Positions 3,660 through 53,336 of a stretch of 64,000 nt of DNA are shown here, piece by piece. Both the position numbers and the translations under genes were made by a program. Under the pieces are notes generated by a model. It searched no databases. It was not told the DNA's origin and was given only the letters and a program-made list of their open reading frames with translations. Each line of letters starts with the position of its first letter. Position 1 is the first letter of the stretch. Source of the DNA: Eledone cirrhosa (Eukaryota); the NCBI GenBank assembly GCA_964016885.1, contig OZ024749.1, positions 51,398,001 to 51,462,000 of the forward strand. The letters run 5' to 3'.

Positions 3660-3865
3660 ATGTTTAATATAGAAATGACTTCTACAAGACTAGAATTGTT
3701 TCATTCAAAAGAAATCATCAGGGCTTTCCTGGTGATCTCTTTTGAATATGAAACAGTTCTTGTCATGTAGAATTCATTTCTATATTAAGCATGATGTTTA
3801 CACTCTACTAATGTATTGAGTACCTTACTTACTGTGGTTACCCCCGATTGAACTCTGGACTCACA
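3660..3865 (+). mobile_element. Inverted HHR-bearing element family B (decayed); second partial copy at ~23937-24060
   Basis: Diverged arms 3660-3722 / 3728-3792. The left arm on minus reads cCTGATGAtttcttttgaatGAAACaattctagtcttGTAgaagtc. Tail actctactaatgtattgagtacc resembles the family A tail. Flanked by (TA)n. Confidence 0.55.
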
Positions 3866-9027: not shown

Positions 9028-9029
<2 letters not shown>

Positions 9030-9221
9030 GGAACCAGTAAGACCCCGACAGCTGAGCTCAAGCCGTTTCGACGGCTAATTCTGGACTGAATTAGCCGTCG
9101 AAACGGCTTGAGCTCAGCTGTCGGGGTCTTACTGGTTCCTATTACCCACTCTACTACCTCAAGTATTGAGTACTTTGGTGCGTTATGGTCCACCTGGTTC
9201 CTTACCACATTTCCTTCGTTA
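9028..9221 (+). mobile_element. Fold-back hairpin element family A, copy 1 (HHR 3'-half, Penelope-like pLTR)
   Basis: ~55-bp perfect arms (9027-9142) plus an ~80-bp unique tail with gtattgagtac, within (TA)n. Contains GAAACGGCT-tgagctc-AGCTGTC|ggggtc. Confidence 0.75.
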
Positions 9222-11571
9222 TATATATATATATATATATATATACATACACACACATACACATCTATATATATATATATATATATACATACATACATAC
9301 ATACTTTAAATCTTCATGAGCTCTATCTAATACAACAGCTGAGCTATATAATTTCTTTGATTCAGACATGCACACATAACTAATACCAATTTTGTTTGGT
9401 ATATCAATACATATATAATAGTGCTACTTAAACTAAGTTACTTATAGCAGGGCAATATAGTCACACTCTACTATCCAAATAATCGAGTACTCTGTTGAAT
9501 AATAGTCCAACTAGTTTAATCCTGATATATATATATATATATATATAATTTAAATTTATGCAAGAAATTATTTCTAGCCTTTATTTAAAATAATTTTGAG
9601 GTTAGAACCTTTAGAAAGAATAAAGGAATTTAACACCCAAAGTATTCCATTTTCAAACTAATTAGGTCTCATCTACTGTGTAATAAGAACCATACATGTT
9701 CTCTCTCAGTCAGTTTGATCTAATGGGACCCAAAATAGCATTTCTGCCAAAATTAGATTTGTATGTTCTCACTGGGGGTTTTATCTTAAAAATTGTTAGA
9801 GTGCACGATGAGTAACACATTATTTAGAGAGAGAGAGAGAGAGAGAGAGAAGAAATATGGGGTGGGGGTATACATCATTGATCTCTTAACTTCATGTGGG
9901 GCCCTATATGGGTTCCATCACGACATATGGCATTTGTGGGAGGCATTTAAACCTGGTAGAGCCCTCCACTCTCCAAGTTTTATCACAGCTGATTTCTTCC
10001 AGCCTTGATGAGATGGGAAAGAAAGTTTGTTTGTGGTATGACTTGAACTCAAATCCCAGAGAGCTGGAACAATTACTGGGGAAATATTCTATCCGATTCT
10101 CTGTAACAACTCTGCCAAGCTATGATAGTAGTATACCATTTTTACCCAGATACTAAATTTCCAATAACTACATGACTGGTACTTTTTTTTATCAACCTCG
10201 AATGGATGAAAATCAAAGTTGACCTCCCTCAAAATAGGTCAAATCTGCATTATAAAAACTAGACATATAAAAAATAAAAAGGTACATTCATTTGGGGGAT
10301 TGGAAAATCAATTGAAATTACACCCAAAAAATATATCATTAGCTACAATGGTTTCTTTCATTAGGGATGTAATTAATTAAACATTATTTTGGGGTCACTA
10401 CATTAAATAGGTTAGCTCACTCTTAGCTATACATCCTTAATGCAGAAGGCATCCCTGGAAATGGATTTTTTTTTTTTTTAAATCTCAGACTATATTTTCT
10501 CTCGCTTATTCTTAAATCTGCTAACTACATGTTTGACTTAATATATGTTTTACTGAAGAGATCTAATAAGATGAAAACATGTCTGAAGTTGACACCGTAC
10601 TTACTCCCATTGCATGTCACCATTCTATTTTTTATCAGTTCGAATTTCAGAGTTGCCTCCCTTGTCTTTCCTAAGAAGGATTGCCATTAACACTAATGAT
10701 GTTTCATCTATCACTGGTATATTTCAATTAAAATTCTTTGCCCCTCACTACATTAAAAATGCTAGCATGCGCCTAACTTTTTCTTTGTTTTTTTATTTAG
10801 AAAATTACCCTTTGGAAAATTTCCACATATATTTACATATTACAGAAATTTGTAAAAGGTATATTTTCTTAAATTACTAATTAAGGAAAAAGTTCTCATC
10901 TCAGAATATTGAAAGCTTTGAGTGAAGGTTTGTAGGATGTAATGATGCTTGCACAGATAACTGAAGAAATGTTTTATTTAAATAATACTATTCTACATCT
11001 TTTAGCTTCAAGAAGAATTCAAGCTGACTGCTGACTCATCATAATGTAAGTTGGGCCATTCCAAAGCTATCAGTTTACCACACATCTTCCTCACAGACTG
11101 CTGCTAACACAAACAGCCATTGTATAAACAATTCGAAAGGTTACCTACTAAAAAGAAGTCACTAAATAAGATTTACTAAGGAACTTGAAATAAATAAGTT
11201 GTATATTTCTTATCTAAATAATAACTTATGTCAGTCATTTCAGAATTATCATGATTATGGAAGAAGAAAAAAATTAGCAGCAAATTAATAAAATAAGACA
11301 AAAATTGAGATAAAATATTTAGAAGATATATTTACATGAGATAGAGTTGTGAGAGAATTTCTGTAAAAGTGTTTAGCTATGAGAAATAATTTGTGCTTTA
11401 TTTAGTCTTAAATTTTTTTATTTTTTTTAATTATAAGAACAGGGATGCTTATATTGTAAATTGTTATTGAAATAATAAGTTATTTGTTTGTGGTAGTTCA
11501 ATAATACTTTCAGGTCTATCAGAGTATCAATATGATGGTTCTAGACATTTAGTACCTCTTAGTGGTTTAAA

Positions 11572-12888: not shown

Positions 12889-13008
12889 ATGGCTTACAGT
12901 ACTTAGAGTTCCCAAGTGGTCACCATCTAAGTACTAACTAGGCTCAACATTGCTTAACTTCAGTGATCGGACAAGAACCAATGTTTTCAGTGCGATATGG
13001 CCATAAAT
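12889..13008 (-). pseudogene. 5S rRNA-derived sequence (CpG-decayed), head of a putative SINE3
   Basis: Reverse complement atttatggccatatcgcactgaaaacattggttcttgtccgatcactgaagttaagcaatgttgagcctagttagtacttagatggtgaccacttgggaactctaagtactgtaagcc is collinear with animal 5S rRNA, including box A (AGTTAAGC) and the TTAGTACTT-GATGG-GACC region. Differences are mostly C>T/G>A. Confidence 0.9.
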
Positions 13009-23401: not shown

Positions 23402-24359
23402 GAAAGGTATAGAAAATATTGTAGCAAAAAGCCAACAGTATTCCATAATATATATATATATAATCTCGAATTAGTACCATTGAACCACATGTATTATAAA
23501 CAACTTGCATATTTCTACAAGTACATTGTACCTGTTGAGGTATTCATCCACTTTTATATATATATATATATGATGATATATATATATAATTAATGAGTTT
23601 CTCATTACATATATATATAGCGATAATGAGAAATTCCAAGTAGCATCTCAGAAAGACTTAACTTTCAATAAATATTCTCCTCTAATTTGCTACCGAGTAG
23701 ATTTTTTTTTCATTGTTTTGCATTTTACAGCAGGATGAATCCACTTTTGTAAATAGCAATGTAAAAGTCAGAGCTGCAATTTACAAGGATATACCATAGT
23801 ATATATATAATTCCTCTCTACCTAACCTTAATGAATTCTGTCACTAAATATAGGTGTTTGCTTTAAGGGTTTTCATCCTATTTTATAGCATCTCCGTGCA
23901 TAAGCAGACTACTATATATATATATATATATATATATGACTTCTACAAGACTAAAACTATTTCATTCATATGAAATCAGCAAGAATTCCTATACTCTACC
24001 TATGTATTGAGTACCTTTTTTTAACTGTGGTCTTTTCCCAATCTTCATCAGGAATCACACCTTATCTATTTATCATCATCATCGTTTAACGTCCATGGGT
24101 TTGGACGGGAATTTTCCCACTTGAGGCAAGATTGGTTGTCTTGCTCATATAGGACTGTCTGGCGGGTTTTCTACGGCTGGATGCCCTACATAACACCAAC
24201 CACGTTTACAGTGTGGACTGGGAGGTTTTTACCGTGTTACCTACACGGCCACATTACAGCGTAGACTGTGTGTTTTTTTGTCGTGACACCTACACGACCT
24301 CATTTATTTAGGACTGGATGTTGTGGAACCAATATATATATATATATATATATATAATA

Positions 24360-24760: not shown

Positions 24761-24793
24761 AATATATATATATATATATATATTTTTATATAT

Positions 24794-24998
24794 AACGAAG
24801 GAAATGTGGTAAGGAACCAGGTGGACCATAACGCACCAAAGTACTCAATACTTAGGGTAGTAGAGTGGGTAATAGGAACGAGCAGGACCCCGACGGCTGA
24901 GCTCAAGCCGTTTCGACGGCTAATTCTGGACAGAATTTTGGTCCAGAATTAGCCGTCGAAACGGCTTGAGCTCAGCCGTCGGGGTCCTACTCGTTCCT
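24794..24998 (-). mobile_element. Fold-back hairpin element family A, copy 2
   Basis: Reverse-orientation near-identical copy inside (TA)n. Confidence 0.75.
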
Positions 24999-31952: not shown

Positions 31953-33204
31953 GAAAAGCAGAAGAACTGCGAAACCGGTAAAGGAACCAAATAAATATAT
32001 ATTTTAAAAATAAGACTCCAGTTGCATTTTCGATTTCATCTTTTTTTCTTTATATATATTTATATATTATGTGTGCATCCCAATGCAAATGATCATAATA
32101 ATAGTTGAGAAAAATCAGGTAAAATACACCACCACCGCCCACCACCCTTCTGGAGCAGAAAAATGTGGACGTGGGTAACTGCAAGGAATTGAAGCCCCCA
32201 CATCTCTTGGGTACCAGAAGAGGGCGTTAACCACTTGACAAAGTTCTGTATCTTTCCCTATAATCCCCACCCCGCATCCATCTCCACCCAACCCCACCGA
32301 CACCCTAGCTTTCATTTCCTCTTCCAACTGAGAGATATAACAGACAGAGAGGGAAGGGAGAAAGGAAGGAAGGAAGCAGCCTTAGAATGGAAGAGAGGGG
32401 GGGGGGAGCGAAATGAAAGAAGGAAGGAAGGAAGCAGCCCAAGGATGGAAGAGACAGGAATAGTGGAAGGGTGGTGGGAGTAAGAGAGGAAGGAAGCAGT
32501 CTTAGAAATGGAAGAGAGTTAGAGAGGGGGGGTGAAGGAATAAGCCCAAGGATGGAAGAATGGAAATTAAACTTGACCTTCCTGGGAATTGAACTCATAA
32601 CATAAAGAAAATATGTTGAAAACGGCCGGAGCTCAGCCGTCGGGGTCCTGAATCTTTTCATATATATATATACACCGTCCTAACCCATGCTAGATTTGAA
32701 AATGGACGTTAAACGATGATGATGATGATGACACACACACAATTGAACATCACACACAATCACATCCACATACACTCATAAAGAAGCACACAATCACACA
32801 ATCACACACCTACACATACAGTAACCAAAAACGGACACACACTCGCAACACACACTCTCTCTCATTCTCACACACACACACACACGCAAACTCACACACA
32901 TGTACATACACACGAACACACACATGTACATACACATGCTCATACACACACACACGCAAGCTCACTCACCTACACTCACACCCACACATGTGGACTTACA
33001 CACGCACCCACTCACATATACACACATGTACTCAGGCACAGACACCTACACACACTCACGTTCATGTTCTCACACACCTACAAACGCATACACACACACA
33101 CACATGCACACATATTCATGCATTCACACACACCTTACACATACACACACACCTTTATATTGGAGCACACAGTCCTCCATTTACTGTAGGAATGTAAAGA
33201 TATT

Positions 33205-35537: not shown

Positions 35538-35742
35538 TAGGAACGAGTAGGACCCCGACGGCTGAGCTCAAGCCATTCGATGGCTAATTCTGGACCAAAA
35601 TTTTGTCCAGAAATAGCCGTCGAAACGGCTTGAGCTCAGCCGTCGGGGTCCTACTCGTTCCTATTACCCACTCTACTACCCTAAGTATTGAGTACTTTGG
35701 TACGTTATGGTCCATCTGGTTCCTTACCACATTTCCTTTGTT
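35538..35742 (+). mobile_element. Fold-back hairpin element family A, copy 3
   Basis: Near-identical copy inside (TA)n; loop ctggaccaaaattttgtccag. Confidence 0.75.
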
Positions 35743-35910
35743 ATATATATATATATATATATATATAACCATCATCTATATATATATATGTGTGTGTTTG
35801 TGTGTGTGTGTGTGTGTATATATATATGTATATATATATAGAGAGAGAGATATTATATCATCATCATCATATATATATATATAACCATCATCTATATATA
35901 TATGTGTGTG

Positions 35911-53056: not shown

Positions 53057-53060
<4 letters not shown>

Positions 53061-53264
53061 AACCAGTAAGACCCCGACAGCTGAGCTCAAGCCGTTTCGA
53101 CGGCTAATTCTTTTTTTTTTTTTTTTTAGTCCAGAATTAGCCGTCGAAACGGCTTGAGCTCAGCTGTCGGGGTCTTACTGGTTCCTATTACCCACTCTAC
53201 TACCTCAAGTATTGAGTACTTTGGTGCGTTATGGTCCACCTGGTTCCTTACCACATTTCCTTCG

Positions 53265-53266
<2 letters not shown>
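53057..53266 (+). mobile_element. Fold-back hairpin element family A, copy 4
   Basis: Near-identical copy inside (TA)n; loop partly replaced by poly-T. Confidence 0.75.

Positions 53267-53336
<70 letters not shown>

Follow-up and report, generated by a model that had tools for sequence, protein, structure and literature searches.

The question raised by this locus is why four short hairpins, each built from one half of a hammerhead ribozyme, lie in (TA)n tracts of one window, i.e. the whole stretch of 64,000 nucleotides analysed here, in a genome of 3.0 Gb. All four copies are surrounded by (TA)n, have identical outer ends, and are 86–100% identical to copy 1 (9028–9221), which was used as the reference (E 1e-68 or better). 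Each is a perfect or near-perfect hairpin of 50–60 bp per arm with a tail of ~79 nt on one side (Table 1). The tail-bearing arm reads as the 3' half of a hammerhead, comprising the stem II 3' strand, GAA, a 6-bp stem III that contains one G-U pair in copies 1 and 4, GUC and the stem I 3' strand. In copy 1, the loop of stem III is palindromic. The core 5' half and the stem II 5' strand are not present in any of the four hairpins. The initial annotation had recognized both the half-ribozyme and the common (TA)n boundaries of the four copies, and they were found at the places it gave.

Table 1. Positions of the hairpin copies and their parts in the window; arm lengths are counted back from the cleavage site
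Feature	Position	Strand	Remarks
Copy 1	9028–9221	+	Arms 41/35, no spacer
Copy 1, tail-less inverted arm	9030–9087	−	From the short 3' end (17 nt past the cleavage site) back to the initiator-like A
Copy 1, tail-bearing arm	9088–9139	+	Up to the short 3' end; begins 6 nt inside the putative RNA 5' end
Copy 1, hammerhead 3' half	9092–9127	+	Pairing from the parent fold; supported by covariation
Copy 1, stem II 3' strand	9092–9099	+
Copy 1, GAA	9100–9102	+
Copy 1, stem III	9103–9121	+
Copy 1, C17	9122	+
Copy 1, stem I 3' strand	9123–9127	+
Copy 1, tail between the two 3' ends	9140–9218	+	~79 nt; continues into 5' UTR and ORF in tandem copies
Copy 2, subfamily B	24793–24998	−	Arms 40/40; 9-nt A/T-rich spacer
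Tail-less arm fragment	32620–32660	+	Older subfamily of the same Penelope-like element
Copy 3, subfamily B	35538–35743	+	Arms 40/40; 9-nt A/T spacer; few private substitutions
Copy 4, subfamily A	53057–53267	+	Arms 36/41; long T run immediately before the initiator-like A

Tail-like sequence is seen in the window at 9464–9516 and at about 23990–24020. Degenerate motifs resembling a minimal hammerhead with the canonical CUGANGA core occur at 3721 (−), 61235 (−), 36715 (+) and 10553 (+), and probably belong to older Penelope families. An isolated, full-length 5S rRNA copy is located at 12891–13008 (−) with a score of 81.8 bits.

The hairpins are the shortest insertions of a Penelope-like element

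Genome-wide searches returned 33,297 exact matches to a 27-mer of the arm and 12,854 matches to a tailed-hairpin pattern, which permitted only 55–100 nt between the two stem I halves; the same patterns read backwards, as a control, gave 0 matches. The family first described as having four copies has that number only within the window. In a sample of 94 hairpins, consisting of the first 90 matches on one contig and the four window copies, (TA)n is found at the left flank in 84 and at the right end in 82. Many arms are unfolded and continue upstream into shared sequence, and at longer loci an ORF adjoins the arm. The window hairpins are the shortest insertions of a very abundant 3.5-kb Penelope-like element. 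Most insertions of this element are hairpins of 190–210 bp, and the hairpin subtypes follow the subfamilies of the parent.

The order of parts at locus L058 is arm, tail, ORF, 3' region and arm. Its ORF is open for 719 aa from the first ATG, with reverse transcriptase (RT) motifs (FD, YRDD) and a C-terminal VIY-YIG recognized by inspection and alignment. A head-to-tail array with a period of 3,542 nt has two open ORFs in the examined stretch; it terminates at the tail end, beyond which lies (TA)n. At L214-L215 (G000:C1, about 91.473–91.494 Mb), at least five tandem 3.54-kb units are found together with an inverted long partner, and both of the ORFs seen there are open. Homologues of the ORF account for 2,054 of 8,000 scored proteins, nearly all of them unnamed, and the best full-length ones listed are ~40% identical. 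Pfam and PDB searches gave no match to the ORF and no credible match to its relatives.

The ORF has the motifs of the Hydra clade, including DKT, a CNCxxxxxC linker, CxxC and CxH but no CCHH, with one Cys between VIY and YIG. At the RWK motif of that clade (PMC8557442, accessible part), the ORF reads RWR, and six aligned relatives read RWK or RWR. These motifs and the (TA)n target agree with membership in the Hydra clade, as judged by comparison of descriptions only. The features of EN+ Penelope-like elements are present, namely partial tandems forming pseudo-LTRs, an inverted 5'-truncated copy and a one-sided tail; the accessible parts of PMC8557442 and PMC3846280 treat inverted 5'-truncated copies and a one-sided tail as standard in these elements. 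The insertions carry two fixed 3' ends, 79 nt apart, one on each side. The initial annotation had named ends of a Helitron or MITE type among the grounds for its refutation; the ends are the retroelement's own two 3' ends.

Two class assignments were rejected. The inverted structure of the hairpins and their missing core 5' half do not agree with a non-LTR retrozyme, and their variable junctions and retroelement 3' ends do not agree with a MITE or a Helitron/Helentron. At L063:2548-3044, three solo tail-less arms lie in tandem with (TA)-rich spacers, likely through local duplication. In four contig sets of unclear kind, both 3' ends pass into (TA)n and depth piles up on the hairpin part; such sets cannot reveal a transcription start, and the best-matching ones may be the source sample. 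A look through sequencing runs listed no RNA set that contains the family, which is uninformative about expression.

A predicted hammerhead with a U3-A8 pair in the parent

The initial annotation proposed that unfolded parents would read CUGANGA upstream of stem II. Unfolded parents do exist, but with the core UUGANAA. A genome-wide search for CUGANGA upstream of the arm gave 23 matches. When inspected, these proved to be junctions or foreign, and none is a parent of a young subfamily; the proposed test fails because the core of the parent has U3-A8. The parent pseudo-LTR contains a complete type I hammerhead arrangement, with the core U3 U4 G5 A6 N7 A8 A9 flanked by stem I (5 bp) and a long stem II. 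Three stems, the 3-8 pair, G10.1-C11.1, A15.1-U16.1 and NUH are all found in the parents, by which the parent is classified as a type I hammerhead and putative self-cleaver. The minimum free energy fold of the parent is a three-way junction. It is no more stable than those of shuffled sequences (z −0.25), and stability alone is therefore no evidence for the ribozyme. Rfam reported no hammerhead on the parent pseudo-LTR or among the best 150 of 246 window matches, and a generic hammerhead descriptor gave nothing useful for tailed relatives in the examined loci.

A pattern for the 5' half, with most of the core fixed, positions 3 and 7 free, and A or G allowed at position 8, matched 5,201 arms genome-wide. 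Among the first 100 listed, position 8 is A in all and position 7 takes all four bases; position 7 varies while the remaining core positions are kept. Position 3 is C in 17 of these 100, giving a C3-A8 mismatch in part of subfamily B. The mismatch would be expected to weaken cleavage. Since many B parents are C3-A8 and yet subfamily B is abundant, cleavage may not be needed. The older subfamily (110 pattern matches) has kept the core, with U3 in 22 and A8 in 21 of 25 loci and C3-G8 in one. One stem II pair is G-C in 45 of 46 young copies versus A-U in 23 of 25 old ones, and a second is U-A in 46 of 46 versus A-U in 19 of 25. The predicted parent ribozyme shows, in these alignments, two-sided compensatory changes in stem II between subfamilies. 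The U3-A8 pair is a known natural covariation (PMC3088659) and occurs in Schistosoma Penelope elements (PMC4209133), according to the accessible parts of both papers. Searches based on CUGANGA miss thousands of U3-A8 ribozymes of the kind predicted here.

In cofolding, a complete ribozyme is predicted when the parent 5' half pairs with the free 5' end of the putative transcript. The hairpin RNA was suggested initially as a trans-cleavage substrate, for which it appears poorly suited, as the parent 5' half fails to open the hairpin in the cofolding model. At L058:3860-3875, the stem II 3' strand and the stem III 5' strand can pair into a 6-bp hairpin with a 4-nt loop, which can serve as an alternative fold of the half-ribozyme when the 5' half is absent.

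The arms stop in the stem II loop

The 94 hairpins have 188 arms, of which 179 were scored against subfamily-matched parents and nine, being short or having indels, were left out. All scored arms end at most 47 nt from the cleavage site, with end positions spread from 28 to 47 and a peak at 40–41. This spread, and the fact that the junctions differ in all four window copies, contradict the earlier description of a hairpin folded back exactly at stem II. The stem II loop, which is ~30 nt long, contains an initiator-like A 41 nt upstream of the cleavage site, and the stop point of the arms is this A or lies slightly short of it. The A belongs to a YYAGT motif, which we take to resemble an initiator and which is the sole feature of the loop kept in the older subfamily. 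A TATA-like run lies 29 nt upstream of the A, but it is lost in the older subfamily and was downgraded as a candidate TATA box for that reason. Inspection by eye against the consensus found no downstream promoter element.

The same limit is seen genome-wide in subfamily A, where 8,839 arms reach position 35, 1,550 reach 57 (the block tested at 57 includes a polymorphic site) and 1,864 reach 84. About 79% of subfamily-A arms stop at this wall with little loss beyond it, and a minority overshoot it by a few to 15 nt. Apparent extensions to positions 42–44 are found only where the parent has T; at sites with a parental A, the arms still read T (11 of 11 at position 44), as would be expected if the cDNA carried an A tail. 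The T run of copy 4 may likewise correspond to such an A tail.

From the sequence pattern we infer that the stop point is the transcription start of a capped element RNA, so that the RNA 5' end would hold only the 3' half of the ribozyme and the 3' pseudo-LTR the whole ribozyme. If the RNA begins in the ribozyme loop, the absence of the other ribozyme half from the hairpins would be accounted for. The initial annotation had suggested RT template switching at stem II; reverse transcription is retained as the origin of the fold, but the boundary fits an RNA 5' end in the stem II loop.

A non-parental G before the putative start

A non-parental base precedes the A in 1,638 subfamily-A arms. In the first 100 listed, inspected by eye, this base is G in 63, C in 33 and A in 4. 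Among the scored arms, those ending at position 41 are followed by G in 13 of 25 cases, versus 18 of 91 for those ending at 35–40 (Fisher p 0.002). Where the parental base at that position is C, in another subfamily, 14 of 30 arms have G, three of these being ambiguous. The hairpins L216-L221 (six, picked for that feature) have the G on both arms, and the solo copies L223 and L227 begin with G directly after (TA)n. Six of 12 unselected G cases are ambiguous, in that the G may derive from the other arm. The extra G is probably the signature of a copied cap, as judged from the DNA; an extra cap-derived G is described at full-length L1 insertions in the accessible part of PMC11702581.

Agreement between the arms and diversity of the junctions

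The two arms belong to the same subfamily in 90 of the 94 hairpins, versus 29% expected from subfamily frequencies, and disagree in four. The initial observation that copies 1/4 and 2/3 differ in both arms together extends to the genome sample. Rare variants are common to both arms at L078, L092, L126 and L155. The agreement is not proof of one template, as age differences between subfamilies or mismatch repair of the hairpin could contribute. Arm lengths correlate within pairs, tending to be both short or both long; among 64 listed insertions with a long arm, 29 have a long inverted partner (counted by eye) versus 12% expected if the arms were independent. Of the 35 singles, 20 were examined: a short partner was present in one and a long partner in another, and the others lacked a complete partner arm.

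The junctions are made afresh, with 54 different strings among 69 readable hairpins and the commonest found four times, which is at odds with the initial view of a mobilized half-ribozyme unit. Junctions with a loop of zero nt occur, and some contain templated insertions. The tail may sit on the longer or the shorter arm, the tail-less arm being the longer one at L055 and L058. Solo arms at L001:1463-1510, L005:1342-1518, L009:1536-1654 and L016:1518-1588 are joined at or near the putative start to a palindrome of unrelated DNA, which is probably target-site DNA, as if a free end had copied the flank. At L010:1380-1511 and L015, two arms share upstream a stretch of unrelated sequence that itself belongs to a different family of inverted repeats.

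Proposed mechanism and alternatives

We propose, with a probability of roughly 0.75, that the hairpins are minimal insertions of the Penelope-like element made by two internal primings near the 5' end of one capped RNA, followed by run-off. Transcription would start at the A in loop II, giving an RNA that begins with the ribozyme 3' half and ends with a full pseudo-LTR. The endonuclease would cut (TA)n on both strands, and both target strands would prime on the same copy of the repeat, with one strand starting from the tail end and its counterpart from the nearer site. When priming takes place on the 5' copy, both cDNAs would stop on reaching the cap, at lengths of about 58 and 137 nt, with a C templated by the cap and often an A tail added. 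Joining of the cDNAs head to head by end-joining, with trimming, would produce hairpins, whereas priming on the 3' copy would yield long copies, inverted or solo. Read-through, a template jump or a circle could restore the sequence that lies upstream of the start. In vitro, a Penelope protein cuts and extends both strands, with two internal starts that bound the tail and without a need for ribozyme cleavage (PMC11167929, accessible part).

It is unlikely that a single priming at the tail end is followed by run-off, after which the cDNA snaps back, copies itself up to the nearer TA-like site and joins the target. Such self-copying accounts for the identity of the arms, including the rare variants shared by both, and for the templated insertions in some junctions, and self-priming has been proposed for Penelope palindromes, albeit on an antisense template, in the accessible part of PMC3846280. 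It does not agree with hairpins in which both arms have their own extra G, with zero-loop junctions, with a tail-less arm that is sometimes the longer one, or with the constant position of the tail-less end, at which long solo copies also terminate on their 3' side. We regard it as quite improbable that the wall is set by RNA structure or processing, either as an RT stall in the stem II loop or by central trimming of long palindromes after insertion. The wall does lie just above stem II, beside a weak apical hairpin, and long inverted repeats are unstable. However, an RT approaching from the 3' side reaches stem II already at position 24, and the arms extend beyond it; stalling or deletion adds no non-parental G; solo copies begin at the same base; and long palindromic copies persist.

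The fixed outer ends and the high copy number would suit a non-autonomous hairpin element (a MITE, a Helentron or a kind of retrozyme) that is mobilized whole and is a substrate for trans-cleavage, and retrozymes have been proposed to stem from pseudo-LTRs (10.64898/2026.07.22.740005, accessible part). We consider such an element very improbable, since the junctions are diverse, the subtypes track the parent subfamilies, the outer boundaries on both sides coincide with 3' ends of the parent itself, no hairpin was seen to contain tandem full-core monomers, and the predicted cofold with the parent 5' half leaves the hairpin RNA closed.

Two primings on one capped RNA leave room for a more speculative extension, which we put forward only tentatively. 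The promoter may be placed in loop II purposely to split the hammerhead, with the 5' end supplying the 3' half and the 3' pseudo-LTR the 5' half. Pairing of the ends, or a terminal repeat, would then circularize the RNA or permit a strong-stop jump, regenerating the pseudo-LTR and tandems. Cofolding predicts −11.9 kcal/mol for the long-range pairing of the RNA ends. If this is true, the 41-nt terminal repeat left by cleavage, or the end pairing, regenerates the pseudo-LTR and seamless 3.5-kb tandems, and the hairpins are a genomic record of thousands of failed strong-stop transfers.

Comparison with known systems

Elements of this class are already known, as are their inverted structure, their tail and the U3-A8 core. 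The literature searched, which lacks most subscription papers, yielded neither a run-off wall marked by a cap nor a start site dividing a ribozyme in two. Drosophila Penelope has its promoter in the pseudo-LTR, and the regeneration of the pseudo-LTR was described as having no obvious mechanism (PMC2377424, accessible part). Self-priming on an antisense template, favored in the accessible part of PMC3846280, is not supported by our data for this Penelope-like family; the sharp 5' wall and the cap-like G on either arm point to a sense, capped template with two primings at one RNA end. The later insertion steps are left unvalidated in PMC11167929, as far as its accessible part goes. Here, more than 12,000 young insertions record the insertion step in their sequence, and the family offers exact predictions (start site, two RT starts and cleavage site) together with intact ORFs for an in vitro test. 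Repeat libraries could misfile such hairpins as MITEs.

The Hydra-clade elements in the accessible part of PMC8557442 and its file S2 are alike in having a C-terminal GIY-YIG, DKT, a CxCX5C linker, no CCHH, and CxxC and CxH near the end, as well as a (TA)n target, a hammerhead near the 3' end, an inverted 5'-truncated copy and a one-sided tail. Differences are seen in the unit size (3.5 kb here, generally under 3 kb there), in the tail (about 79 nt versus a typical 30–40), and in the core, which is U3-A8 with long stems II and III here and C3-G8 with short stems in the Hydra rows of file S2. The single cephalopod family in that source has a different ribozyme sequence, and, unlike in the Hydra clade as described there, most insertions here are hairpins of 190–210 bp.

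In Poseidon PAc (PMC11167929), too, cutting and extension involve both target strands, RT initiates internally at two sites that define the tail, and insertion does not require ribozyme cleavage. That system belongs to another clade and was studied in vitro, and the accessible part of the paper describes neither run-off products at the 5' end nor a start within the ribozyme. Schistosoma Cercyon, in the accessible parts of PMC4209133 and PMC3088659, is similar in the core covariation in a Penelope pseudo-LTR, the palindromic loop III and the motifs near each other on opposite strands. Its ribozymes are minimal, whereas the predicted ribozyme here has a 6-bp stem III and a ~30-nt loop II with the putative start site. 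L1 twin priming (PMC11702581, accessible part) likewise involves a second priming by the other target strand and an extra G at full-length 5' junctions. L1 inversions, however, rearrange non-overlapping parts, while in the mechanism proposed here both cDNAs would copy the same stretch and thereby form a palindrome.
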